From contig JAKIVS010000001.1 of NCBI GenBank assembly GCA_022750435.1, positions 221,703 to 285,702 of the forward strand: a stretch of 64,000 nt of DNA, read 5' to 3'. Both the position numbers and the translations under genes were made by a program. Numbering within the stretch: position 1 is the stretch's first letter; each line of letters begins with the position of its first letter. Source of the stretch: Thermoplasmata archaeon. GTDB lineage: Archaea > Thermoplasmatota > Thermoplasmata > Lutacidiplasmatales > UBA184. Shown here piece by piece: positions 5,914 to 51,036 of this stretch. Under the pieces are notes generated by a model, which worked only from the letters and a program-made list of their open reading frames with translations, was not told the origin of the DNA and did no database searches.

Positions 5914-7125
5914 CTATCGGGGGGCAGAACGACCGCCCGATTCGCCCGTCGGGAGACAGGCGACCGTCCTCTGGCGGAGGTCGGTCAGGGCGTTCATGTA
6001 GTTCGCATAGGCGTCGTACGGAGTACCGTAGGAACTGAAGTACCGATGGACGTCGGCGTCGGCGCCGTGGCCGCTGACGTACATGTAGTAGAAGTGGTCG
6101 GAGGTGAGCATCCAGCGCCATTCCTCGAGGAGCGTCGGGTCCCCCGCGGCCCGGACCAGCGTCCCTAGCTTCTTGGCCGCCTCAAAGGCGGACCTCTGCA
6201 GGTCGTTGCCCAGCCACGCCCCGAGGTCGCGCTTCGCGTCCGCCCAGCTGACGGTCACGGGCGAGGAGACCGCGCCGACCGGCTCGAGTTCCAGCGCGTC
6301 GTCGACGGTCGCCCAGGAGAGCCGCCGGTCGACGGACGCCGCCCGGGGAAGCGCGGAGAGGAAGTCGAGGATGCCGGTATCGGCGTGGTGGTGCTCCCCG
6401 AACGTCTCGAAATCGAGGAACAGCCCGATCATCTCGCCGGGGCTGTCGCCGAGCCATCGGACGTATTTCTCGGCGAGCAGCGGATACTCGCTCCACTCCT
6501 TCGACGAGAACCGGAAACCGATGTCGTCGCTCAGTCGGTAGTTGCGGAGGAGCATCCGCACTGTCGGCGCGCTGGCCGCACAATACATGTGGTTGGCCGA
6601 GCGCCCCTCGAGCATCCCTTCCCACCCCTCCGCCAGCATGGCCGCGTACTTTCGGGACTCCGCGAACCGGGCGAGGTCGTCCGAGAAGGCGAGCTCCGTC
6701 ATCCTCAGAACCTTCGCGTGTCCGCCGAACTGGTCGGCCAGCATGCGCGCATGGCGGTCGACCTCCTCGGCGAGTTCCGGCGGAGGGAGAAGGAACGCCA
6801 GCGAGTGGTAGTACGTCTCCCCGACGAGGGCGACATGGCCCGAGCGGACGAGCCGTTGCAGCCGTTCGAGGACGTCCGGCGCCGCCGCAGCGGCCTGCTC
6901 CACGAACGACCCCGTGATGGAGAGGCTGAATCGGAACTCGGGGAACGCCTCCGTCGCCGCCGTCAGGCGGTCGAGCGCCGGCCGGTACGCGCGCTCGGCG
7001 ATCCCGCGGAAGATCGCGAGGTTTCGTTCGCGGTCGATGTACGGGCGGCCGGAGCCGAGGTCCATGTAGCGGAACCGGGCGAGCCGCCACGGTTGGTGCA
7101 GGTGGAGGTAGAGGACGACCTTCAC
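5914..7125 (-). CDS. GH57 family alpha-glucan-active enzyme (alpha-amylase/4-alpha-glucanotransferase-like)
   Basis: Motifs LHLHQPWR and DFETFGEHH are GH57 signatures. Lies inside the 869-aa fused track ORF. Start GTG at 7125 overlaps the upstream TGA (GTGA coupling). Confidence 0.7.
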   Translation of the reverse strand: MKVVLYLHLHQPWRLARFRYMDLGSGRPYIDRERNLAIFRGIAERAYRPALDRLTAATEAFPEFRFSLSITGSFVEQAAAAAPDVLERLQRLVRSGHVALVGETYYHSLAFLLPPPELAEEVDRHARMLADQFGGHAKVLRMTELAFSDDLARFAESRKYAAMLAEGWEGMLEGRSANHMYCAASAPTVRMLLRNYRLSDDIGFRFSSKEWSEYPLLAEKYVRWLGDSPGEMIGLFLDFETFGEHHHADTGILDFLSALPRAASVDRRLSWATVDDALELEPVGAVSSPVTVSWADAKRDLGAWLGNDLQRSAFEAAKKLGTLVRAAGDPTLLEEWRWMLTSDHFYYMYVSGHGADADVHRYFSSYGTPYDAYANYMNALTDLRQRTVACLPTGESGGRSAPR

Positions 7126-22371: not shown

Positions 22372-23433
22372 TTACGGACGGATCCGTTCGAGGCCGAGAA
22401 ACCGAACCGAGTTGTCGGGAGCGACCCCGGCGATCAGGAGGTCCTTGCGGACGCCCTGCGCCACCCGGACAGCCCCGGCGATCTCGGGCCACGGGGCGCG
22501 GTAGGTCGACGGGACAGCCCGCACCAGGTAGCGGGCATGCACCGTCTCCGGATTCCGTGGATACGCGCGGAGGTGCGCCCCATACTTGAACCCGGTTTTC
22601 ACGACGAGCTGACGAGAGCGCAGGACCCGGTACGTGGCGAGGCGCTCGGCGAAGCCATGCTCCAAGCGCTCGGCCCGCTGGCGGAGTCGCTCGAGCGGGA
22701 CGTCGCGTCCTCCCCGCGCGTCCTTCAACGTCAGTTGGCCCGCGTCGAGGAGGTGCGCCGCCTCCAGGAGCGACAGCTCGAGTCGCTCTCCGATCCGGCT
22801 TCCGTGGGCGAGTCCCTTTCCGAGGATGGCCACCGCCTCGTGGTCGAAGACGATCACCCGGTCCTCGGCCAGCCAACCCACCGCCGGCGCGCCCATCGTC
22901 TGGGCGGGGTGGGAGCCGACGGGCGTCGACCGGCGGAGGCGGTAGTACGTCAGGTCGGACTCCTCGTCGACGACGGCGACGAGCAACGACTTCTTCGCGC
23001 CGTGGGCGCGGTCGGCGAGCGCTTCGAGCTCCGCGAGGTCGAACGGCTGCCGCTCGGAGTAGGTGGCGACCCAGAACTTCGCGGGACTCTTGTTCAGGAT
23101 TCCGCCGCGAGGCAGCACCGCGAACGCGGTCGGCGGGGGCGAGCGTCGGACCACGTAGCCCCGCTGGCGCAGGTCCCGGTACACGATGTATCGGACCCCG
23201 AACCCCCGCTCCGAGCGCGCGGCGCGGCGGAACAGGTCGGGCCAGGCCACCGTCCGACCGCGGCCGTCGGTCACGGCGAGCCGCGCCATCTCGACGAGGT
23301 AGACGGTCTCGTACCGGTCGAGGGCGAGGCCGTCGCGGTCGGGCGTCCCGAAGAATCCCCGGCCGTACACCGTCCCGGCGTCGGTCGGCTCCGCGACCCG
23401 GGAGGTCGCGTCGCGCCCGAGGACCGCGCTCAC
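22372..23433 (-). CDS. endA: tRNA-splicing endonuclease (duplicated-domain, homodimeric-type EndA)
   Basis: Degenerate N-terminal repeat YIVYRDLRQRGYVVR plus C-terminal catalytic domain KTGFKYGAHLRAY. Confidence 0.75.
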   Translation of the reverse strand: MSAVLGRDATSRVAEPTDAGTVYGRGFFGTPDRDGLALDRYETVYLVEMARLAVTDGRGRTVAWPDLFRRAARSERGFGVRYIVYRDLRQRGYVVRRSPPPTAFAVLPRGGILNKSPAKFWVATYSERQPFDLAELEALADRAHGAKKSLLVAVVDEESDLTYYRLRRSTPVGSHPAQTMGAPAVGWLAEDRVIVFDHEAVAILGKGLAHGSRIGERLELSLLEAAHLLDAGQLTLKDARGGRDVPLERLRQRAERLEHGFAERLATYRVLRSRQLVVKTGFKYGAHLRAYPRNPETVHARYLVRAVPSTYRAPWPEIAGAVRVAQGVRKDLLIAGVAPDNSVRFLGLERIRP

Positions 23434-35826: not shown

Positions 35827-37284
35827 GTGAACACGAACATTCTCGTCGCCATCGCGGTCGTCGCCCTGCTCGCCGGGCCCGTGGAGTACTACAGCGTCGC
35901 CGAAGCGTCCGCCCCGGCGGCGCATACCCTGAGCTTCAACCAACTGGGATTCCTCGATCACATCGACCACATCGTGTACGTCGTGATGGAGAACCACGCG
36001 TACGACAACTACTTCGGAACCTATTGTCAGACCAAGAGCGTCGACTGTCCCAACACCTCCCCCGGGATTCCCGCCGGCACCTGCGTCCCGTACAACGTTT
36101 CCCTTCCGAACGGCCCGTGCATCAAACCCTGGAACTATACCGCCCAGAACTGGTCACTGAAGACCCTCCTTCCGCACTCCTACAAGTCCTCCGAAGCGTC
36201 GTGGAACTACGGCGCGATGGACGGGTTCTACCAGGCAGAGGGCTCCGGCCTCGACCCCTTCGGCCACTACAACGGGACGACCGCCCCGATCTACTGGGAC
36301 CTGGCGCAGGAGTACGCGCTTTCGGACAACTTCTTCTCGTCGGTCCTGAGCTATTCGCTCCCCAATCACTGGCACATCGTCGCGGGACAAGCGCCGCAAG
36401 TCATCATCGTCAACGGCACCCTCGGCTCCCCCGCGGTACCGGCCAACCTGACGATCGCGAACGACAAGACCTACCTCGGGCAGGCGAACAACACTCGCAG
36501 CATCGAGGATCTCCTGCTCCGCTCCAAGGTCTCGTGGACGTACTACGACTACACCCTCGGAACGTACGCCAGCGCGATCAACATCAAGCTGAACGCCGCC
36601 AAGAATCTGATCACATCGACCGGCGTCGCGTACAATCCTTGGAATCCCCAGGCGGCGAAGGCGGAGTCCTACAACGCATCGTTCGTCCAGCACTTCGCCG
36701 TGAACACGCAGTTCTACTCCGACGCGCGGAACGGGACGCTTCCGAACCTCTCCTGGGTGATCCCGGCTGCGCAGGACTCCGACCACGCCCCGCAGAACTC
36801 CACGCTCGCCCAGACGTGGCTGGCGAGCATCGTGAACGCGGTCGAGACATCGCCCGACTGGAACACCACGGCCCTGTACATCACGTGGGACGACTTCGGG
36901 GGCTTCTACGACAACGTCGCACCCCCGAGTTTCTACGGCCAGCAGCTTGCCTTCCGAGTGCCCCTGATTGTCATTAGCCCGTACACCCGGGCCGGAGCGA
37001 TCACGAACACGATGGGATTCTTCGAGTCTGTCCTCCGCCTGATGGAGTGGCGGTTCCATCTCGGCTGCCTGACCGTCCTCGACTGCAATGCTCCTCTCCC
37101 GATCTACGGGTTCAACTGGAACCAAACCGCACGGGCCCCGATGTTGTTCCCCACCAACTTCTCGAAGGCGACGTACCCGTTCAATCCGAAGTGGGATCAA
37201 GGAACGAAGATTCCCGAGGGAACGTACGTGCCGCCGGCGAACTACACGTACTTTCCAGACGGAGAACTGCCCGACATCGATTGA
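35827..37284 (+). CDS. Secreted phosphoesterase (phospholipase C / acid phosphatase PF04185-like)
   Basis: Signal peptide, VVMENHAYDNYFGT signature, many NxS/T sequons. GTG start. Confidence 0.7.
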   Translation: MNTNILVAIAVVALLAGPVEYYSVAEASAPAAHTLSFNQLGFLDHIDHIVYVVMENHAYDNYFGTYCQTKSVDCPNTSPGIPAGTCVPYNVSLPNGPCIKPWNYTAQNWSLKTLLPHSYKSSEASWNYGAMDGFYQAEGSGLDPFGHYNGTTAPIYWDLAQEYALSDNFFSSVLSYSLPNHWHIVAGQAPQVIIVNGTLGSPAVPANLTIANDKTYLGQANNTRSIEDLLLRSKVSWTYYDYTLGTYASAINIKLNAAKNLITSTGVAYNPWNPQAAKAESYNASFVQHFAVNTQFYSDARNGTLPNLSWVIPAAQDSDHAPQNSTLAQTWLASIVNAVETSPDWNTTALYITWDDFGGFYDNVAPPSFYGQQLAFRVPLIVISPYTRAGAITNTMGFFESVLRLMEWRFHLGCLTVLDCNAPLPIYGFNWNQTARAPMLFPTNFSKATYPFNPKWDQGTKIPEGTYVPPANYTYFPDGELPDID

Positions 37285-37450
37285 GCCGAGATTTCCGGTG
37301 GTCGACCCTTCGGGGCCGACCTGAAGGCGGTGGACCGGGGGCCCCGGCGCTCGAGTTGCACGTCCCTCGGAGGTGGGCGGTTCGTGAACCGGCCGGCGGG
37401 CGGTTCCCCGGACCGGCCGGCCTCGGCAGGGAATCACGCCGAGAGTGAGG

Positions 37451-37555
37451 TGCTCCCGGCGGGAGTTTCCCCGGACGGCGGGAATCGCCGTCCGATTTTG
37501 AACCCGCGTCAGAGGCTCGAGAGGCCTCTATCCTTGACCACTAGACTACGGGAGC
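37451..37555 (-). tRNA. tRNA-Glu(CUC) interrupted by a ~32-nt intron at non-canonical position 59/60 (T-loop)
   Basis: Minus-strand parse: GCTCCCG-TA-GTCT-AGTGGTCAA-GGAT-A-GAGGC-CTCTCGA-GCCTC-TGAC-GCGGG-TTCAAA[ATCGGACGGCGATTCCCGCCGTCCGGGGAAAC]T-CCCGC-CGGGAGC-A. 7-bp acceptor stem, 5-bp anticodon stem, U33, G37, anticodon CTC. T-stem GCGGG/CCCGC and loop TTCAAAT are restored on excision. The intron carries a perfect 9-bp hairpin CGGACGGCG/CGCCGTCCG. Confidence 0.7.
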
Positions 37556-37661
37556 AGCCTCGGCTGCGGTACTGAATCCGCTCTTTGAGGCTTTCGCACT
37601 CGAAATCCGCACCGGCACGGCGGGCGGCAACGCCTATCTGCGCCCGACCGGTTCCGGCCCC

Positions 37662-38120
37662 GTGACTCCACCGGTCAAGGCCCGTAGTGGCCACCTCATC
37701 CTCGAAGGCCGTCAGACCTACGCCGACCTGACACGCGTCTACCCGGACATCCACCGGAAGGTCGTCGAAGCGAACCGTCCGTTCGCGAAGGAGTCCGAGC
37801 CGTTGCTCCCCGAGGTCCTTCTCGAGGAGAATCTCCGGGACCTTCGCGCCGGCCGCAAGCCCGCCGGCTACAACCGCTCCGAGCCGTTCGCCCTCCGCCT
37901 GATCTTTCCGATCTGCGACCGCAAGCATCCGGAGTTCTACTTCTCGAAGCCCGCGCGCTGCCAGGAGGTCGTTCAGATCACGGAGCAGGTCTCTCAGCTC
38001 CTCAAGCGACGCGGCATGAAGCACACGGTCGAGTACGACCGGCTGCCGCTCGGCGTTCCCCGTGGCCTGCCGCCCGTTCCTCCCGTGGGGAGCGGCACAG
38101 GGTCCATCAGCATCGGTTGA
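37662..38120 (+). CDS. Hypothetical protein
   Basis: GTG-start 152-aa ORF with protein-like composition (K, E, F, Y, I). Preferred over the antisense 37509..38024 ORF, which overlaps the tRNA. Confidence 0.35.
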   Translation: MTPPVKARSGHLILEGRQTYADLTRVYPDIHRKVVEANRPFAKESEPLLPEVLLEENLRDLRAGRKPAGYNRSEPFALRLIFPICDRKHPEFYFSKPARCQEVVQITEQVSQLLKRRGMKHTVEYDRLPLGVPRGLPPVPPVGSGTGSISIG

Positions 38121-41890: not shown

Positions 41891-44800
41891 CTAGAACGGC
41901 TGGCGCCGGAACGGCCAGAACGCCGCGGGCGTCTCCGGGGGCTTCGTCTGGCCCTGGAGGAGCTTGAGGGACTCGCGCGCCTTGTCGAGCGCCTTCTGGT
42001 AGTCCTCGACGCGGGCGCGGATCGACTCCTCGAGAAGCTTTCGGGCATCGGCGGTGTCGAGGTGGCGCTCCGCCGCCTTTGCGAGAGCCGAATCGATCAG
42101 GTAGTGGATGTTCAGGAGCTCCCGGTGGAGCGCCTTGCGGGTGTTCAGCTCCGACTCGACCGCCAGGAGGGTTCGTGCGCCTTCCACAAGGTCGCCCGAC
42201 TGGACGAGGCCTTCCACCGAGGCGAGTCGCTCCGGGAGCGTGCCGAGCGTGACGTTGAGGCCCTCCCGCGCGAAGACGAGTTCGCTCTCCACGCTGCGGC
42301 GGCGTTCGCCGAGGCGTGCCTCGACGAGTCCGGCCAGGCGCTCGTTCCCCTGCTGGACGTTCGCCTCGACGCTCGCGTACTTCCCCGCGTCGAGGGCGCT
42401 CTTCGCCTCGCTGAACAGCTCCATCACGGGGGTCGTGTCAAGACCGAGCTTCTCGCCGACCCAGAGGCGGTCTTTCAGAAGATGGACCGCGGCCTCGAGG
42501 ACCGCCACGCGGCTCAGTCGCGCCCGGGCCTCCTCCTCACTCATGCGTTGAACGGCGAGCGGGTAGTCGCGTCGCCCCCGCGCCTCCTGGATGCCGAGAG
42601 CCGCTTGGGCCCGGGCCTCGGTTTCCGGTGCGTCGGCGGCGGCCGCCGCGCCGTAGATGGCTTCCAGGTCCGTTCGCCGGGCGTCCAGCAGCCGGTCGAG
42701 CGATTCGTACGCGGCGGTCCGCGCCCGTTCGAGGGCGTCGGACGCGCGCTTCCATTCCCTCGCCGGGATCGCGCCCTCCGCCTCGGCGACCGCTTCCTCG
42801 ACGGCCTGGATGCGGCCGGTGCCGGCCGCGGTCATCGTCTCGGCGAGCGATCGGATCGAGGCAAACGAACCCGCGTAGAGCCGCTCGACCGCCCAGCGGG
42901 CGAGGTCGTTCGCCTCGCGCGCGGCCTGCGTCGCGTTCGGATATTCCCCGGCCTGGGCGTGGTGTCGGGCCTTCTCGAGCGCTCGGACGACTTCGTCGAC
43001 GTCGGCGCCCAGCTCGAGGGCTTCCTTCACCTGCCGGTCGGCCGAGTCGAGGGCATCGCGGGCCCGGCGCTGCTGCTCGCGGGTGGTCGCGAGCTGGTCG
43101 GCGGCCTCGAGCGCGAGCTCGAAGACGGCCGGGAACTGCTGACGGCGGATCGCCTGGCGCGCCTTCTCGATCTGTGCGGTCGCCGAGGCGGCGTGGACGC
43201 CGTCTTTCTCCGCCTCGACGAGCTTCGCCTCCATCGTCTCGAGCGCCGCGCGGGCGAGCGTCGTCTGGAGTTCCACGCGCTCGATCTCCCCCTCGCTCTG
43301 GGCGGCGAGGGTCAACGCTTCGATGGCGCGGCCTTCCTCGAGCGCCTGGCGAGCGCGCGACAGGAGGTTCTCGGCGACGGTCGTCGGCGACCCCTCCTGG
43401 CGGACATGGACCAGCATCCCCTGGAGGTTCGCGAGCGTCTTCGCCACGTGGGTGTGCGTCGACTGGATCAGCTCCCGCTCGAGCGGGCCCCCAAGCTCGA
43501 TCGCCTTCGCGTAGCGCTTCTGCGCCAGGTGATCCTCGAGTTCCGCGAGGCGGCCCTTCAACGGACCGATCGCGGCCCGCACGATCTCGGCCTCGGCGAA
43601 CGCCTCCCGGGCGCGCTTGACGGCCCGCTCGGCCTGTTCGAGGAATCCCCGTGTTTCCACCAGCTGGGAGCGGACGGACTCGACGCGCTCGGCGACCCCG
43701 GTCGGCACCGGCGTGGCGAGCCCGCGTCGCGCCTCGGCGAGCTGCTCGACGACGGTCCCCGTGTCGACGCCGGCGGACCGGGCCACATCGAGCTCCTGCT
43801 CGAGGGCGCGGACCGTCTCCTCGAGGACGGGGCGCAGAAGTTGGAGGAGCGCGTCCTGCGCGGTGGTCGCCAGTTGGAGGGCTTCGGTCGGTCGTCCCTC
43901 GGAGAGGGCGGCCGACGCCGCGGCGAGGTTCGGCCGGTACGGGTCGGTGGAGAGGCCAAGGCGGTGACTGTCCTCGAGGAGGAGCTCGACCGTGGTGATC
44001 CGGCGTCGGGCGTCGGTGCCGGCCCGCTCCGCCGTGAGCGCCTCCTCGATGGCCCGGAGCTTCGCCTTCGCACCGGCAAAGTCGAGGGCCTGGTACGCGA
44101 GGCGCGTTTCCCGGATGCGCTCCCGGTAGGCGTCGACGGCGACGCCGTCGTCCTTGAGGCCCTGCCAGAGCTCGCCCGCCCGCTGCAATCCCTCGACGAG
44201 CGCCTCCGCCGATTGGCGCATGCCGAGCGCCTCTTCCTCGACCGCCTTCGCGCCCTGGTACGCCTCGGCGAACCGGTGGTCGCGGGCGGCTTCCTGGGCG
44301 GCGTCGAACCGCTCGCGGAGGGCCGCGGTGTCGAGGCCCATCTTCCCGAGCTCCACGAGAGCGAGCTTCGCGTGGGAGACCGCCTCCTCGCTCTGGATGA
44401 GCTGTTGCTGCTGGGCGCGCGTCCGGATCTCCTGCGAGGCCCGGGACGCCTTGACGAAATCGCCCATGTTGAAGATCTGCTGGACCTCGTCGATCTGACG
44501 CTGGATCTCGTCGCCGGCCCCGCCCATCGCCTCGAGGGCGCGACCTTCCTCCTCCAGCGCCTCCACCAGGGAGGAGGCGTGGGCGGCGAACACCGCGGCG
44601 AACTCCCGCTCCGCTCGCTTGAGGCTCTCCAAGGACGCCACCAGGTCCTCCTTGACCCGGAGCGAGACGTCGGCATCGGCGAGCAGACGTCGCGCCGGGG
44701 CCACGAGGGCGTCGTCGTGGATCTCCTCGAATCCCTTCTCGAGTTCCCCCACGACGCGGGCGACGTACGGACCGGCCGACGCCCGCAGGCCGACCTCGAC

Positions 44801-46357
44801 GGCCGCGAGCGCCTCGCCGGCCTCGGCGAGAGACCCGTCGGCGAGGGTCTGCTGTCCGTTCGCGAGGGCGGCCGCCGTTTCCGGCGTGAGGAAGCCGCGC
44901 TCGCGCGCCAGCTCGACGAGCTTCTCGAGACGTTCGGCGTAGGTTTGGAAATGTTCGAGCGCGGCGCGTCCGAGGGTCCGGATCGCCTCCCGGATCGTCG
45001 TCCGGGCGGCGTCGACCTCGAACTTCTCGAGCCGCTGCTGCGCCTCCCGGAGCGGTTCGTAGTACGACTGGACCGGCACGTCGAGCGCGCTCAACCGGTC
45101 GAGGAGCGAGCGGAGCGAGTCGACCTCCTCCCGGGCGGCGTCGAGGTCCTGGGTGAGCGCCGTGGCGCGCTCCATCGCCTCCTGGCTGGCGGCGAGCGCC
45201 TCCCCGTAGATCTTCAGCCGGAGCGCCTCGCGGGCCCGGTTCATCGCCGCGAACACGTCGGAGGCGTCGCGACCGAGCCAGCGGGCCTCGACCAGCTTCG
45301 GTCGAACCTCGTCAAGCAGCCCGGCGACGATCCCCACGACGGGCTCCTCGGTGATCGCCCGCCCCTTCGCGAGGAGCTGGGGGAGTTCCACGGGACTAGC
45401 GCCCGGCACCTGGTCGACCAAGACGTCGATCTGCGCGACGCCCTCCGTCACGTCGGTGCCGGACCCGCGCAGCGATTCGAGGGTCCCTTTCAGCGTGGCG
45501 AGCGCCCCTTGCACCCGACCGCGGAGTTCCTCGCCGACGTCGGCGCTCGCCCGCTCGATCGCCGGGACCGTCTCGTCCCACTCGAGCGGGGTCGCGCTCT
45601 GATCGACGGCGAGGGCCGTGTCGAGCGTGGCGTGCTGCGAGCCGAGGTCCCGGGCGGCGGCGAGAATCGATTGTCCGGAAGCGCGCACGAGCTCGCGCCG
45701 CTCCACGGCGGCGGGGACCTGGCCCCGGATCTCCGCGTCGAGCTGCGCGAGCGCCTCCGCCACCTTTCCGTCCGACATCGGGGCGATCGCGTGGCGGAAC
45801 CTCGCATCGAGCTCGGCCATCCGCTCCTCGGGGATGCCGGCCCATTTGGCCACCGAACGCGCGCGCTCGCGCAGGGTGAGGGAGAAATCCGTCTGCGATT
45901 GGCGGACGATCCGGAAGAGCGTCGCGATTCGCTCGACGGCCAGGGCGAGCTCGCCTTCGATCGCCGTGGCGCGCAGCTCCTCGATGACCTTGGCGGCGTC
46001 CGCGGGGAGCGGCGCCTTCGCCTTCTGGAGCGCCTCGGCGCGGCCGAGCACCGACGTCCGGCGCTCCTCGAGCGCTGGCGCCACGGAGCGCTGGATGTAG
46101 GATACGAACTCTTTCGCGGTCTGCTCGACCGCCTCCCAATCGGACTTCCGGGTGAGCTCGCGGAGCTTCGCGACCCGCTCGGCGGTCTCGGAGAGGGTGA
46201 CGCCGATCTCCTCGAGAAGTTTCAGTCGGTCTTCGACCTCGGCCGACGCCTGGTCGGCGAGCTGGCGCCGCTTCTTGAGCGACTCCGCCTTCTCCTGGAG
46301 GATCTTGGTCAGGCGGGACGATGGGACGCTCCCCATCCCCCCACCCGAACCGGACAT
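41891..46357 (-). CDS. Giant (1488 aa) acidic alpha-helical repeat / coiled-coil protein of unknown function
   Basis: Ala/Glu/Leu/Arg-rich with a recurring ~35-40-aa module [LV]xxxG[LAV]DTxxxxxxLxxAxxAxxxGxYxxA. Full-length antisense ORF 42062..46363 is a shadow. Confidence 0.65.
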   Translation of the reverse strand: MSGSGGGMGSVPSSRLTKILQEKAESLKKRRQLADQASAEVEDRLKLLEEIGVTLSETAERVAKLRELTRKSDWEAVEQTAKEFVSYIQRSVAPALEERRTSVLGRAEALQKAKAPLPADAAKVIEELRATAIEGELALAVERIATLFRIVRQSQTDFSLTLRERARSVAKWAGIPEERMAELDARFRHAIAPMSDGKVAEALAQLDAEIRGQVPAAVERRELVRASGQSILAAARDLGSQHATLDTALAVDQSATPLEWDETVPAIERASADVGEELRGRVQGALATLKGTLESLRGSGTDVTEGVAQIDVLVDQVPGASPVELPQLLAKGRAITEEPVVGIVAGLLDEVRPKLVEARWLGRDASDVFAAMNRAREALRLKIYGEALAASQEAMERATALTQDLDAAREEVDSLRSLLDRLSALDVPVQSYYEPLREAQQRLEKFEVDAARTTIREAIRTLGRAALEHFQTYAERLEKLVELARERGFLTPETAAALANGQQTLADGSLAEAGEALAAVEVGLRASAGPYVARVVGELEKGFEEIHDDALVAPARRLLADADVSLRVKEDLVASLESLKRAEREFAAVFAAHASSLVEALEEEGRALEAMGGAGDEIQRQIDEVQQIFNMGDFVKASRASQEIRTRAQQQQLIQSEEAVSHAKLALVELGKMGLDTAALRERFDAAQEAARDHRFAEAYQGAKAVEEEALGMRQSAEALVEGLQRAGELWQGLKDDGVAVDAYRERIRETRLAYQALDFAGAKAKLRAIEEALTAERAGTDARRRITTVELLLEDSHRLGLSTDPYRPNLAAASAALSEGRPTEALQLATTAQDALLQLLRPVLEETVRALEQELDVARSAGVDTGTVVEQLAEARRGLATPVPTGVAERVESVRSQLVETRGFLEQAERAVKRAREAFAEAEIVRAAIGPLKGRLAELEDHLAQKRYAKAIELGGPLERELIQSTHTHVAKTLANLQGMLVHVRQEGSPTTVAENLLSRARQALEEGRAIEALTLAAQSEGEIERVELQTTLARAALETMEAKLVEAEKDGVHAASATAQIEKARQAIRRQQFPAVFELALEAADQLATTREQQRRARDALDSADRQVKEALELGADVDEVVRALEKARHHAQAGEYPNATQAAREANDLARWAVERLYAGSFASIRSLAETMTAAGTGRIQAVEEAVAEAEGAIPAREWKRASDALERARTAAYESLDRLLDARRTDLEAIYGAAAAADAPETEARAQAALGIQEARGRRDYPLAVQRMSEEEARARLSRVAVLEAAVHLLKDRLWVGEKLGLDTTPVMELFSEAKSALDAGKYASVEANVQQGNERLAGLVEARLGERRRSVESELVFAREGLNVTLGTLPERLASVEGLVQSGDLVEGARTLLAVESELNTRKALHRELLNIHYLIDSALAKAAERHLDTADARKLLEESIRARVEDYQKALDKARESLKLLQGQTKPPETPAAFWPFRRQPF

Positions 46358-46868: not shown

Positions 46869-47019
46869 CGCGCGTCCCCTCCGAAGCTCTCGCAAGAAGT
46901 CCGGGGGATAACCGTTGCCCCCGGGCCGGCCGTCGACCGGGGCCGTCCGGCGAGCGAGGGTTTATCGGCGCCGGTCCCCCATCGCAATCCCGCGGGCCGC
47001 GGCGCGGTCCGACGCGTTC

Positions 47020-50000
47020 ATGGAGCGGCTTGCGCCACGGTACGACCCGACCGAGGTGGAGGCGGCCAGCCGCGCGTTCTGGGCGGAACGTTCCCGGCGG
47101 CGCGACGCCGAGGGCGCGGCGGGCCGGGGCGGCCGACCGGTCCGGCAGTTCCTCGGCACCCTCGCCCCCTCCGATTCTCCGGCCACGACGCTCCAGCGGA
47201 CCGTCGCCGCCGATGCCGAAGCGCGCTACCTGCGACTCGCCGGCCGACGGACGGATTGGTCGCTGAGGCTCCGGGTCCCATGGTCCGGCGAGGGACGGGA
47301 CGCCACGGTCGCGCGGCTCTTCCAGGCCGGCGTGAGCGGGCCTTCCACCGACCCGGACGGACTCGCCGAGCGGCGACGGTGGATGCTCGGACGCCTCGCG
47401 GACTCCCGCGTCTTGGTAGCGCGGGAACTCCCGCTCCGGATCTGCCCGAGCTGTCGGACCCCCCGCACCCCGGAAACGATCGTCTACGACGCGCAGCCCG
47501 GGCACGCCTACCTCGTCCGCTTTGCCATCCCGGACGAGGCCGAACGCACGTCGCTCCTCGTCTGGACGGACGAGGTCTGGAAGCTCCTCGGCACCGTGGC
47601 GCTCTTGGTCAACCCCGAAACCCCGTACGTCGTCGCGCGATTCACGCGCCGCGACACCGCGGAACGGGTGATCCTCTCCCGGTCGGCGCTCGACCGCGTG
47701 CAGCGCTGGCTCCCGGGGAGCTCCCTCGAGGTCCTCGAGGAGAAGCTCGGGGCGGACCTCGCGGGGACGACGTACTCCCACCCGCTCACGCTCGAGTACC
47801 CTCCCCTCTCCGACCTCGTCTCGCCCGCGGGCTCCGTCGTCGCCTCGAACGACGTGAGCGACAGCGGCACCGGGATCGTGACGCTCACCCCCTCGCACGG
47901 CGCCGGCGATGCGGCGGTCGCCCGGGCCCACCGGATCGAGGGTCCGTCGGTGGTTGGGACCGACGGCCTCGTGGAGTCCTCCCGGCCGCACAAGTACGCG
48001 GGGCTCGAGTTGGAGAGCGCGGAGGCGTTCATCCTCCGCGACCTGACCGAGGGAGGTTCGATGTTCGCCGAGCTGACCGTGCGGCGCGGCGTACCGTACT
48101 GTGCGGTGTGTGGCTCGGTCCTTCGCTGGGTTCCCGGGCGCGCCTGGTGCCTCGAACCGGGCCGGCTGAGCGCGGAGTCCCTCGGCCAGTTCGCGCGCCT
48201 CCTTCCCGACGACACCGTCCCCCTCACCTCCGAGGTCGTCCCGTGGTCGGTCTCCGAGACGACCCCGAGCGTCGACCCGTCCGACCCGATCCTCTCCGAG
48301 TGCTCCCAATGCGAGCGGCTTTCGACGGCCGCCACCGGGGAGCGGTGCGCCTGTGGCGGAGCGTTCGTCGGCGTGCGACGGCGCCTTCTGCCCGCGTTCT
48401 CCGAGGCCGTCGATGGGTGGGCCTCGGCCCGCGCCCTCGATCCCTCGGACCCGGTACGGCTCTACCTCCCGTACCGTCGGAGGGCCGCGGCGTTGCTCCA
48501 CCACCTCGCCGCCGGCGAGGCGCTCGACGCGCCGCCCGCTGACGTGCGATTGATCGCCCTCCCGACCTTGCCGCCCGGGACCTTCGGCGACGGTCCCGGT
48601 CAGGACGCCCAGAGGGCCGCGCTCCTCCGAACGAGCCGCCCCCCGCGCACGCTGGCCGTCGTCCAGGAACGCGCGGTGCAGGAAGCGCGGCGGCTGAGCA
48701 AGTTCTGGATGTTGGCCGCCCAGGTGCTCGACCGTTCGATCGCCGACGGATTTGAACCGGACCGGGCGCTCGCCGGTCACCTGTCGGAGCTGGCGGAGGA
48801 GGACCGGGCGTTCCTCTCCACCTTCGAGCGGATGCGGACCGACGTCCGTCGACGCTACGAGGCCGGCGACCTCGCCGCCGCCCAGGCGATGCTCGCCCGA
48901 TTCGCGGAGGTCGAACTCCGCGGGGGGTACCTCCCGATGGTCGCGAGCCGCCTCGCCGCGCCCGGGCTTCCGCCGGGGAAGGTCGCCGCCCTCCGGGTCC
49001 TCCACCACGTTCTCCCCGCCTGGGTCGAGCTGTACGCTCCCATCGCGCCGTTCACGATGGAGGCGCTCCACCGGGCGTTCCAGCCCGATGGAGGCTCCGT
49101 CTTCGACGGCGGGATCCTGCCGGCCGTCGACCGGGCCGTGTCGGTCGAAGCGGAGGGGGAGTACGACCGGTGGCGGACCTTCGGCGAAGCCCTGCGGGTC
49201 GGACGCCGGAGATTCGGAATCCCGGCCGCGACCGAGCTGCCCCGCGCGATCCTCCTCGTGAACGATGAGGCGACGGCGACCCGATTGCGTTCGACCGCCG
49301 CGGTCCTGGGGCGGCTCGCCCACGTGACGGAGGTCATCGTCGGCTCCCCGTCCCAACCGTGGGATGGTCAGAGGATCGAGGTCCATCCCGTCCTCGCGGC
49401 CATCCAGAAGACCTACGGGGCCCAATCGGCCCGGGTCGTCCGGATCCTGGAACAGATTCCGTCCCGTCGCGTGCAGGACGGCGTGCGGGCCGGCACGCTC
49501 TCGATCGCCCTCGACGGACGCCAGATGCCAATCCTGCCTGGCATGGTCGAGTTCTCCGAATCGCTGCCGGACGACGTGGTCCCGGTACCCTGGGGGCACG
49601 GCGAGATCCTGATCTCGCTCCCCCCGGACACGGCCCGCCACAAGCGGAAGGCGCCGGCCCTGACGCTGGACGGCTACCGGATCGTTCGCCACATCGAACG
49701 CCGCTTGCACATCGCCGGGGGGGTGACACCCGAGCTCGTCGTCGTGTCGGCCAACGGTCCGCTCGGCGAAGAGATGGCGAAGCACGCCGTCGCCGTCGCC
49801 GCCTACATCGGGATTGGGCAGCTCGCCGTCAACGACGGGACCCTCTCCCCCCCGATGACGGAGACGAGTCTCGGGCGCACGCGTCGCGGAGGTCGGTGGC
49901 GGGTCTACATCCCCGGCGTTCCGGTTCGGCCCCCCACGGCCCGGCCGAGCCGACCGGCCCTCGGACGCCACCGGGTTCCCGTGTTCGCTGAGAGCCGGCC

Positions 50001-51036
50001 CACGTTGGAAACCGTTCCCTTCCTCGAGGGGTCGGTCCGGAACCGCGAGGAGACGGTGCGCTCGATCGTCGAGCAGGTCGACCGAGTCGTCGGACGACCC
50101 GTGGTCGGACCGACCAAGGTCGGAAACGCGTTCGACGCCGGGTTCACCTCGTTCGACTTGCTGTCCAAAGCTCCGTACGACCAGCTCTCGGGCGTGGCGG
50201 GGTTCGGCCCGTTCGTCGCCGGTCTCCTCGTCGAGTCGTTCGGAGGCGAGGTACCGGCGCCACCGCCTCGCCACCGGCCCCACCTCGTGCGTCCGGGCGA
50301 ACACGAACCAGCACCTCCCGAAACGCTGGAGGCGCCGGCCATGGTCGAGCCCCAGCCGGCGCCCCCGGTCCCGGCCGCCGCCCCACCGCCCCTCGCGCCG
50401 CTCGCGGCCCCGATCCTTGCCCCGCCGCCGGCGGCAACCTTACCCACCATGCAAGTCGTTCCCGTGGCGCCGGTCCCGACCCCCGCCGTGCCGGTGCCGC
50501 CACCCCTCGCCCCACCCCCGGTCGTAGCTCCTCCGCCGGCTCCGGAGCCCCCAACTCCGGAACCCCCCGCCGCACCGCCTTCCGGAGTACGACTGAGCCT
50601 CGGGGACCGGGAGGAGCCGGCGTGGAGGAGCTTCCTCGACGCGACGAGCGCCGGACACCGGGGGCTGTGCCTCAGCCGGGAGTTCCCAGAACGTCGGCGC
50701 GCCCTCCTCGGTCCCCGGGACGTCGAGGTCGTCTGGCTCTCGAACGTCGGCAAGGGCTCTGCGGTCCGACCGGGCGACCTGCCGGCGCTGACGACCCTCC
50801 TGACCTCCGCGATGACCGACCGGGGCGTGACCGCCATCTTCGTCGAGGGGGGAGAGTACCTCGTTCGGATCCACGGCGTCGGCCCGCTCGCCGATCTGCT
50901 CCGGCAGCTCGACGCGCTCGCCCGCGAACGCTCCGCCCGGGTCTGGTGGCCGATCAACCCCGCGCTGATGCCCGGCGCGGACGTCGACGTCCTTCGGACG
51001 ACGGTGACCGTCGAGGGCCCCGAATCCCCGACGTGA
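47020..51036 (+). CDS. Catalytically degenerate isoleucyl/valyl-tRNA synthetase paralog fused via a Pro-rich linker to a C-terminal DUF835 domain
   Basis: Class I aaRS N-terminus (PRYDPTEVEAASRAFW). CP1 boundaries ICPSCRTPRTPETIVYDA and PYCAVCGSVLRWVPGRAWCLEPG. Editing-domain motifs LLVWTDEVWKLLG and GTGIVTLTPSHGAGD. IleRS-like DAQRAALLR, KFWML and LPAWVELYAPIAPFTMEAL. HIGH and KMSKS are absent. ~110-aa P/A/V-rich linker. C-terminal GLCLSREFP...VVWLS...AIFVEGGEYLV matches DUF835. Confidence 0.7.
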   Translation: MERLAPRYDPTEVEAASRAFWAERSRRRDAEGAAGRGGRPVRQFLGTLAPSDSPATTLQRTVAADAEARYLRLAGRRTDWSLRLRVPWSGEGRDATVARLFQAGVSGPSTDPDGLAERRRWMLGRLADSRVLVARELPLRICPSCRTPRTPETIVYDAQPGHAYLVRFAIPDEAERTSLLVWTDEVWKLLGTVALLVNPETPYVVARFTRRDTAERVILSRSALDRVQRWLPGSSLEVLEEKLGADLAGTTYSHPLTLEYPPLSDLVSPAGSVVASNDVSDSGTGIVTLTPSHGAGDAAVARAHRIEGPSVVGTDGLVESSRPHKYAGLELESAEAFILRDLTEGGSMFAELTVRRGVPYCAVCGSVLRWVPGRAWCLEPGRLSAESLGQFARLLPDDTVPLTSEVVPWSVSETTPSVDPSDPILSECSQCERLSTAATGERCACGGAFVGVRRRLLPAFSEAVDGWASARALDPSDPVRLYLPYRRRAAALLHHLAAGEALDAPPADVRLIALPTLPPGTFGDGPGQDAQRAALLRTSRPPRTLAVVQERAVQEARRLSKFWMLAAQVLDRSIADGFEPDRALAGHLSELAEEDRAFLSTFERMRTDVRRRYEAGDLAAAQAMLARFAEVELRGGYLPMVASRLAAPGLPPGKVAALRVLHHVLPAWVELYAPIAPFTMEALHRAFQPDGGSVFDGGILPAVDRAVSVEAEGEYDRWRTFGEALRVGRRRFGIPAATELPRAILLVNDEATATRLRSTAAVLGRLAHVTEVIVGSPSQPWDGQRIEVHPVLAAIQKTYGAQSARVVRILEQIPSRRVQDGVRAGTLSIALDGRQMPILPGMVEFSESLPDDVVPVPWGHGEILISLPPDTARHKRKAPALTLDGYRIVRHIERRLHIAGGVTPELVVVSANGPLGEEMAKHAVAVAAYIGIGQLAVNDGTLSPPMTETSLGRTRRGGRWRVYIPGVPVRPPTARPSRPALGRHRVPVFAESRPTLETVPFLEGSVRNREETVRSIVEQVDRVVGRPVVGPTKVGNAFDAGFTSFDLLSKAPYDQLSGVAGFGPFVAGLLVESFGGEVPAPPPRHRPHLVRPGEHEPAPPETLEAPAMVEPQPAPPVPAAAPPPLAPLAAPILAPPPAATLPTMQVVPVAPVPTPAVPVPPPLAPPPVVAPPPAPEPPTPEPPAAPPSGVRLSLGDREEPAWRSFLDATSAGHRGLCLSREFPERRRALLGPRDVEVVWLSNVGKGSAVRPGDLPALTTLLTSAMTDRGVTAIFVEGGEYLVRIHGVGPLADLLRQLDALARERSARVWWPINPALMPGADVDVLRTTVTVEGPESPT

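Follow-up and report, generated by a model that had tools for sequence, protein, structure and literature searches.

The minus strand of positions 37451-37555 in the 64-kb stretch of DNA analysed here (contig JAKIVS010000001.1, from a Thermoplasmata archaeon; the whole stretch of 64,000 nucleotides (nt) is referred to below as the window) carries a complete gene for the precursor of a glutamate transfer RNA (tRNA) with the anticodon CUC, the T-loop of which is divided between nucleotides 59 and 60 by an insert of 32 nt. We put at about 0.9 the probability that a tRNA-Glu(CUC) gene at this locus is functional and that its insert is an archaeal intron of the kind that is spliced out by proteins. 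The predicted gene spans 105 nt, from G1 at position 37555 to the discriminator nucleotide A73 at position 37451. Exon 1 (nucleotides 1-59; 37497-37555, minus strand) comprises the 5' strand of the acceptor stem, the D arm, the anticodon arm, a 4-nt variable region, the 5' strand of the T stem and T-loop nucleotides 54-59 (UUCAAA). The intron (37465-37496, minus strand; ATCGGACGGCGATTCCCGCCGTCCGGGGAAAC / AUCGGACGGCGAUUCCCGCCGUCCGGGGAAAC) is followed by exon 2 (nucleotides 60-73; 37451-37464, minus strand), which consists of U60, the T-stem 3' strand CCCGC, the acceptor 3' strand CGGGAGC and A73. The sequence of the minus strand from 37555 to 37451 is GCUCCCG UA GUCU AGUGGUCAA GGAU A GAGGC CUCUCGA GCCUC UGAC GCGGG UUCAAA AUCGGACGGCGAUUCCCGCCGUCCGGGGAAAC U CCCGC CGGGAGC A. 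The anticodon lies at plus-strand positions 37519-37521, the CCA end is not encoded and the trailer is CCUC.

Removal of the insert leaves a regular cloverleaf, and the sequence reads in this respect as the original prediction, made from the DNA letters of the window, had claimed. The acceptor stem has 7 base pairs (bp; GCUCCCG/CGGGAGC), the D stem has 4 bp, two of them G-U pairs, the anticodon stem is a perfect helix of 5 bp, and the 5-bp T stem (GCGGG/CCCGC) closes the T-loop UUCAAAU. Spliced in silico at the junction GGGUUCAAAUCCCGCC, the exons give a product of 73 nt for which ARAGORN draws a perfect cloverleaf and which is 100% identical to the uninterrupted tRNA-Glu(CUC) genes of three related genomes (loci L013, L025 and L093). 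These uninterrupted genes match the Rfam tRNA model (RF00005) over its full length at 68.2 bits (E = 2e-13), against a gathering threshold of 29 bits, and the covariance-model check that had been suggested for the locus thus comes out in favour of the spliced form through its identity to them. The unspliced locus scored 24.7 bits in a sensitive local search, below the threshold and with the T arm deleted in the match, and at the gathering threshold there was no Rfam match anywhere in the 64-kb window. Weak matches near the locus to the Rfam families PtaRNA1, mir-491, PhotoRC-I and MEG3 lay far under threshold and were taken as chance. The 105-nt precursor is predicted to fold with a minimum free energy (MFE) of -54.6 kcal/mol (z = -4.54 relative to dinucleotide shuffles) into a structure in which the acceptor and T stems are formed, together with a symmetric 7x7 internal loop and, within the intron, a hairpin of 10 bp.

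Evidence for the intron also comes from its distribution among relatives of the archaeon. A pattern spanning the D arm and the anticodon loop, run on a collection in which each prokaryotic species has one genome, matched at least 119 loci, nearly all of them in metagenome-assembled genomes (MAGs) of Thermoplasmata, from soils and peat; a scan of viral contigs with the tRNA pattern yielded no match. Among the matches listed, 114 full-length homologues were parsed. An insert lies between UUCAAA and UCCCGC in 106 of the 114, with lengths of 26, 28, 29, 30, 31 or 32 nt, and the other 8 are uninterrupted. The placement of a 32-nt intron at 59/60, as originally predicted, is upheld by, among other things, the identity of the spliced form to intronless genes and the occurrence of an insert at the same site in the great majority of homologues. 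The introns comprise 105 distinct sequences, and the exons are near-invariant. When the 26 sequences that have a 32-nt intron are aligned, which requires no gaps, the columns of exon 1 are invariant save for compensated changes in the anticodon stem, and exon 2 is invariant in all homologues of the 32-nt class. In the same alignment, 9 of the 10 pairs of the intron hairpin have changed on both sides. The covariation score of the hairpin was 0.171, compared to 0.072 +/- 0.008 in shuffled alignments (0 of 500 reached the observed score) and no more than 0.073 in slid registers, and 92% of the hairpin cells were paired in register versus at most 59% when the register was slid. When the hairpin pairing was anchored from both ends over all 105 introns, the corresponding values were 87% in register and 54% after a slide by one.

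The exon-intron junctions are predicted to form a motif of the bulge-helix-bulge (BHB) type with the full 3-4-3 geometry denoted hBHBh', in which both 3-nt bulges and both flanking helices are present and only the fourth position of the central helix departs from Watson-Crick pairing. The outer helix h is the invariant 5-bp T stem (nucleotides 49-53 with 61-65). The 5' bulge (37496-37498, minus strand) consists of A58, A59 and intron nucleotide 1, and the 3' bulge (37464-37466, minus strand) of intron nucleotides 31 and 32 (A and C) together with U60. Between them, the 5' strand of the central helix (U54 U55 C56 A57; 37499-37502, minus strand), which was assessed by counting opposite residues over the 105 introns, faces the 3' strand (intron nucleotides 27-30, GGAA; 37467-37470, minus strand), which was assessed by pairing counts and the covariation test. 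The inner helix h' is the intron hairpin (37471-37495, minus strand), where 37486-37495 would pair with 37471-37480 (intron nucleotides 2-11 with 17-26) around a 5-nt loop at 37481-37485. Its 10 bp are nine Watson-Crick pairs and one U-G pair, so that the perfect 9-bp hairpin attributed earlier to the insert is indeed there, with the U-G pair in addition. Folding of the T arm plus intron agrees with the spacing of the bulges: nearly every MFE structure has the T stem, an internal loop and the hairpin, the loop being 7x7 in 62 of the 105 folds and, in most of the others, 6+6 with intron nucleotide 1 also paired.

In the numbering of the intron, the central pairs are U54-A30, U55-A29 and C56-G28, and A57 stands opposite G27. 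The three pairs are retained throughout the homologues: U54 and U55 are each opposite A or G in 105 of 105 introns, and C56 is opposite G in all 105. The residue opposite A57 (37499) is G (37470) in the window, and across the 105 introns this place is taken 79 times by G, 23 times by U and 3 times by A or C. The penultimate nucleotide of the intron is A in 103 of the 105 and the last is C in 86; the hairpin opens with a C-G pair in 98; and U60 is invariant in 114 of 114 homologues. The motif can accordingly be folded at both junctions, as had been anticipated, but the "relaxed" form that the original prediction had envisaged is not needed, as both bulges are present with 3 nt each. The relaxed class of motifs (HBh', hBH and BHL, associated with EndA enzymes of the (alpha-beta)2 or epsilon2 type) was ruled out on the same basis, since no bulge is missing or of odd length. 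In its layout, the motif is the canonical arrangement of the anticodon-loop intron relocated to the T arm, with the intron separating the sixth nucleotide from the seventh in a 7-nt loop on a 5-bp stem.

The tRNA-splicing endonuclease EndA follows a rule by which each cut comes behind the second nucleotide of a bulge, in agreement with what is seen for introns at 37/38. Cuts of this kind would fall after A59, between 37497 and 37496, at the 5' junction and between 37465 and 37464 at the 3' junction, and would leave exactly UUCAAAU, the T-loop of the intronless orthologues. It is from the rule and from this T-loop together that we infer the cut positions. The ends of the released intron would then be 5' AUCGG... 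and 3' ...GGGGAAAC, which would be joined to each other in a circular form.

An enzyme that should suit this motif is encoded in the window itself. The endA gene (22372-23433, minus strand; 353 amino acids (aa) in two tandem repeats, with PF01974 and PF02778 in two stretches each, NF006795 and TIGR00324) lies 14.0 kb from the tRNA gene, at the distance of about 14 kb previously given for it. The N-terminal and catalytic domains of the enzyme each occur twice in the chain. The predicted protein is collinear with the homodimeric EndA of Archaeoglobus fulgidus (1R0V/2GJW) over both repeats, from residue 63 to residue 335. In its C-terminal repeat, the segments kYG...vHarYLV...vRKd align with the enzymes of A. 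fulgidus, Methanocaldococcus jannaschii and Methanopyrus kandleri and retain the conserved Y, H and K positions, which we take to be the catalytic triad. The catalytic domain has no insertion relative to these three enzymes; an insert termed the "specific loop" (L1/L2/L3) has been linked to a broad substrate range of EndA (PMC5829648). The two repeats, the collinearity with the A. fulgidus enzyme, the conserved Y, H and K and the lack of an insertion in the C-terminal repeat point to an EndA of the alpha'2 type, that is, a homodimer with two repeats per chain, and the full 3-4-3 motif of the tRNA gene fits an enzyme of this type.

Several observations weigh against the interpretation of the locus as a protein-spliced tRNA gene. 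Nearest-neighbour folding leaves the three or four central pairs of the motif open as a 7x7 loop. The fourth central position is a purine-purine apposition, A57/G, in the window and in the 79 introns counted above, and enzymes of the alpha'2 type have been described as requiring a strict 3-4-3 motif (PMC3239211, PMC7714728). There was no RtcB-type match among the 31 open reading frames (ORFs) of the window that were scanned with Pfam, although no search aimed at a ligase was made and 64 kb are too little to demonstrate that the genome lacks one. Splicing, the exact cut sites and ligation are themselves predictions, and a 64-kb window cannot show whether its tRNA-Glu(CUC) gene is the sole copy in the genome. 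The A57/G apposition would be unexpected if the alpha'2 EndA needed four true base pairs. Where G faces A57, neither U nor C is overrepresented at intron nucleotide 1 (as read from the list of introns, not tabulated), and an alternative pairing has therefore seemingly not been selected.

Four other explanations of the locus can be weighed against these data. The one that survives best, while still having little to recommend it, is that the insert is never removed, which would make the locus a pseudogene in decay or else a tRNA-like RNA whose T-loop arm stays enlarged for good. Removal of the insert is a prediction, and standard tools call no normal tRNA at the locus. Unlike a pseudogene, however, the locus has exons that are invariant across more than 100 species, and the insert always leaves the 3-4-3 spacing that EndA needs, with the three central pairs kept in every one of the introns. 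The conservation of a promoter-like motif and the status of GAG as the main glutamate codon (both described below) also speak against a pseudogene, as does, more weakly, the finding that no second gene matching the search pattern occurs in the same genomes among the matches listed.

It is slightly less probable again that the insert is a genuine intron removed by a route other than BHB recognition and EndA cleavage, for example through self-splicing or another RNase. The A57/G apposition, by departing from a fully Watson-Crick central helix, is the observation that lends itself to this idea. Against it, 26-32 nt is far too short for the core of a group I or group II ribozyme, the only conserved features of the introns are those of the BHB motif, and the window has an EndA gene that keeps the conserved catalytic Y, H and K. 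Group I introns of tRNA genes are built on a ribozyme core that takes up a few hundred nucleotides, and they are sited in the anticodon loop; a bacterial-type self-splicing intron of this group was ruled out for an insert that measures 32 nt, lies in the T-loop and has no Rfam intron match.

The insert might alternatively be a remnant of a mobile element or an integration event, be it a duplicated attachment (att) site, a repeat element of small size or a chance hairpin, and we regard this as very improbable. The 3' halves of tRNA genes are common targets of integration, the 3' flank of this tRNA gene is not syntenic with that of its relatives and the G+C content falls to 0.635 there. Yet no att-like duplicate of the tRNA 3' end occurs in the 64-kb window with up to 3 mismatches allowed, and 106 species have their insert at one and the same nucleotide position, with differing sequences and compensated pairing. 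A regular-expression scan of the 119 loci and the window for other tRNA-like contexts with T-loop inserts gave 11 matches, of which 10 look like chance occurrences in GC-rich sequence, the other being at locus L008. The least credible proposal is that the 75-nt intronless model called by ARAGORN on the genomic sequence (37481-37555), with or without an intron option (the options -i, -i0,60 and -ps cover anticodon-loop introns only), is the real tRNA and that everything downstream is trailer, because the model is poor, with 3 Watson-Crick acceptor pairs and a mostly non-canonical T stem, it follows the tRNA over the 5' two-thirds and is then closed on intron sequence, its 3' half is intron sequence that differs in every related species, and the locus falls below the Rfam threshold that the spliced form exceeds at 68.2 bits.

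In the proposed pathway, expression of the gene would begin with transcription from a conserved element resembling a B recognition element (BRE) and TATA box, some 25-40 nt upstream. A promoter-like element, CGAAAGCCTCAAAGAG, is found at 37581-37596 on the minus strand, 26-41 nt upstream of where the mature tRNA starts, and recurs in homologous upstream regions. The motif cGAAAGGCUCAAAGAG is conserved at -41 to -26 in 112 of these regions, which share A-rich blocks at -37 to -35 and at -29 to -27 and a T-A step near -14. The motif looks like a BRE plus TATA-like element with a short leader in a high-GC genome, for which a promoter role can be proposed, and this argues for expression of the tRNA gene. 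The intronless and more distant lineages have AT-rich boxes of the TTAAATA type upstream instead. A scan for promoters and terminators of the bacterial type, which is unsuited to an archaeon, found nothing. The tRNA would be in heavy demand, since GAG makes up 79% of the glutamate codons, and ~5% of all codons, in the 18 confident genes of the window.

The BHB motif and the 10-bp intron hairpin would lengthen the T stem of the precursor, as the sequence and the covariation indicate. The alpha'2 EndA might then recognize the motif irrespective of its position in the tRNA and cut after the second nucleotide of each bulge, as expected for an enzyme of this class; because EndA of the alpha'2 type recognizes the structure of the BHB and not the tRNA body, a BHB in the T arm should be a substrate for it. 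From what is general in archaeal tRNA biology, a ligase of the RtcB type would join the exons and the intron would probably be circularised, and RNase P, RNase Z and the CCA-adding enzyme would complete the ends. Since U54, U55 and C56 are predicted to be paired with the intron in the precursor, contact between the T-loop and D-loop as well as modification of the T-loop would have to wait for splicing. The UUCAAAU T-loop, its docking with the D-loop and folding into the L-shape should thus be possible only after the intron has been removed.

The conservation data also bear on the identity of the host and the age of the intron. The nearest loci among the matches listed, which include that of Candidatus Lutacidiplasma silvani AcS3-62, have ~82% nucleotide identity to the window over the tRNA and its neighbour. 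The G+C content of the window is ~71%, and the order Lutacidiplasmatales has been described with ~69% GC (PMC9287336). The window also encodes CDP-archaeol synthase and ordinary chromosomal genes. The window thus comes from a Thermoplasmatota archaeon of high GC that is close to Candidatus Lutacidiplasma and is not a crenarchaeon, and its intron is no isolated case but has become fixed in a large clade. A haloarchaeal host, to which the 71% G+C and the alpha'2 EndA might have pointed, was rejected since nearly all matches of the genome scan were Thermoplasmata MAGs. A plus-strand gene adjoins the tRNA gene in intron-bearing and intronless genomes alike, and its protein is 67-91% identical to that of the window in intron-bearing loci and 58-65% identical in those intronless loci where a homologue was found. 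This pattern of divergence fits a single gain of the intron in the ancestor of the large clade, followed by vertical inheritance, and would make the intron specific to the clade. The intron sequence itself looks as though it is conserved only for its splicing motif, in the manner of an element that was fixed long ago and has since been kept merely splice-competent. As the introns share no conserved sequence beyond the splice motif, nothing points to a guide RNA within them or to any further function.

Two sets of loci in the survey deserve separate comment. Loci L043 and L059, both from the MAG JOPF208, carry the same intron-bearing tRNA gene on two contigs and are both cut at contig ends, and they probably represent a duplicate in the assembly rather than two copies of the gene. 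In two MAGs of Nanoarchaeia (L039, at ~6890-7080 on the plus strand, and L097, on the minus strand), a tRNA-Glu(CUC) gene with the same D arm has ~105 nt inserted right after the anticodon, with an intact 3' half (GGUUCAAAUCC...GGGAGCA) situated ~160 nt from the start; this insert looks like a long intron of the anticodon loop.

The neighbouring gene mentioned above encodes a protein of 152 aa and is transcribed divergently from the tRNA gene (37662-38120, plus strand). Its G+C content by codon position is 0.69/0.45/0.84, and homologues were found beside tRNA-Glu(CUC) in 107 of the 119 loci among the matches listed, the best-matching of them at 75-90% amino-acid identity. The gap between the two genes is less than 300 nt in 73 loci, with a median of 130 nt. 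The protein has no family match in Pfam, NCBIfam or the PDB. Opposite it on the minus strand runs a 171-aa ORF (37509-38024) which extends over the initial 47 nt of the tRNA, has a G+C content by codon position of 0.80/0.47/0.68, a profile typical of frames that lie opposite a real gene, and shows no match in Pfam or NCBIfam; the 152-aa frame outscored this opposite frame in 79 of 79 comparisons. The 171-aa ORF is a shadow of the conserved plus-strand gene. The original prediction was right to call it spurious, as its third-position G+C of 0.68 and its place in the shadow of the gene at 37662-38120 indicate, but was mistaken in calling it antisense to the tRNA, with which it shares the minus strand, and it overlooked the real gene on the plus strand behind it.

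On the other side of the tRNA gene, the 3' flank (35827-37450) contains a phosphoesterase gene (PF04185; 35827-37284) with a homologue in 1 of the 119 loci among the matches listed, and the local G+C content (0.635 in the profile for 36001-38000) can be compared with ~0.71 elsewhere; this flank may be an acquired segment. Farther away, an ORF of 1373 aa (46915-51036, plus strand) has an aminoacyl-tRNA-synthetase anticodon-binding domain (PF08264) in the middle of the protein and DUF835 at its C terminus, and may represent either a fusion or two separate genes that run together in one frame. An ORF of 1488 aa (41891-46357, minus strand) has a strong coding signal, with 0.91 G+C at third codon positions, and no Pfam match at E <= 1e-4.

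The results reveal no new mechanism. Their practical consequence is for annotation: the tRNA for the commonest glutamate codon, GAG, was missed at the Rfam threshold and mis-called by ARAGORN in the window, and pipelines that do not search for non-canonical archaeal introns would report these genomes as being without tRNA-Glu(CUC). For specialists, the interest lies in the fixation of the intron in more than 100 species of a lineage with alpha'2 EndA and in the prevalence of the A/G apposition in the central helix. The ~105 natural variants of a single T-arm BHB substrate could be used to define the tolerance of the alpha'2 enzyme. A bolder idea, which we offer tentatively and think is probably wrong, is that the T-loop intron has been kept at one nucleotide position in the main glutamate tRNA of over 100 high-GC Thermoplasmata species by selection and not by inertia, perhaps because it gates maturation or because integrating elements lose a target when the gene's 3' half is interrupted, and that the lineage shows an alpha'2 EndA which routinely processes T-arm BHB motifs ending in an A/G apposition. 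If it were true, the intron could act as a maturation gate, such that T-loop modification and folding of the L-shape start only after splicing, and these genomes would provide natural evidence of an alpha'2 EndA, usually described as strict at the canonical site, acting on a BHB in the T arm with an A/G end pair.

No description of this intron came to light in our literature search (the 2003 survey by Marck and Grosjean was outside its coverage), and the paper on the Lutacidiplasmatales does not mention tRNA introns (PMC9287336). Position 59/60 is nevertheless a recognized hotspot, non-canonical introns have already been documented in euryarchaea and the mechanism considered here is an ordinary one. 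A survey with tRNAscan-SE 2.0 counted 25 non-canonical introns in 144 genomes of Euryarchaeota, 6 of them from 3 Methanomassiliicoccales and 1 from 5 Thermoplasmatales, in a table that gives counts only, without the tRNA or position (PMC8450103, Supplementary Table S7); relatives of the archaeon studied here were thus already known to have a few such introns, which a standard tool can detect. Reviews have stated that euryarchaea with EndA of the alpha4 or alpha'2 type have introns only at 37/38 (PMC4090602), and to this rule the locus is a clean, clade-wide counter-example.

The closest individual systems include the precursors of tRNA-Cys(GCA) and tRNA-Pro(GGG) of ARMAN-2, which have BHB introns at 59/60 (PMC3239211). 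They share with the present gene the site of insertion in the T-loop and protein splicing by way of a BHB, and the intron of the tRNA-Pro likewise has a strict hBHBh' motif (PMC3239211). The differences are that ARMAN-2 has an epsilon2 EndA of broad specificity and many disrupted tRNA genes, whereas the enzyme here appears to be of the alpha'2 type, and that the intron of the ARMAN-2 tRNA-Cys has 13 nt and a relaxed hBH motif, as opposed to the 26-32 nt of a single intron that is fixed across a large clade of Thermoplasmata. The same junction, 59/60, and a BHB-type motif are also found in the permuted tRNA genes of Thermofilum pendens and Cyanidioschyzon merolae (PMC3218864), but in these the 3' half lies upstream of the 5' half, while the gene described here is collinear.

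Another close likeness, in enzyme and motif, is to the canonical 37/38 introns of euryarchaea with alpha2 or alpha'2 EndA, such as those of Haloferax volcanii in its tRNA-Trp, tRNA-Met and tRNA-Gln, the last with an intron of 31 nt (PMC7714728). The class of enzyme, the 3-4-3 spacing of the motif and the equivalent position in the loop are the same, and the size of the present intron is near that of the tRNA-Gln intron; in H. volcanii, however, the motif is on the anticodon arm, and its transfer to the T arm here would sequester U54-A57 in place of the anticodon loop. The alpha2 EndA of H. volcanii requires hBHBh' and also cleaves BHB motifs in the precursors of 16S and 23S ribosomal RNA and in the 5' untranslated region of HVO_1309 (PMC7714728). 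These substrates differ from the present one in their RNA context, having no tRNA body, but they are cut independently of position in a tRNA, which is the very property that splicing in a T-loop would need.

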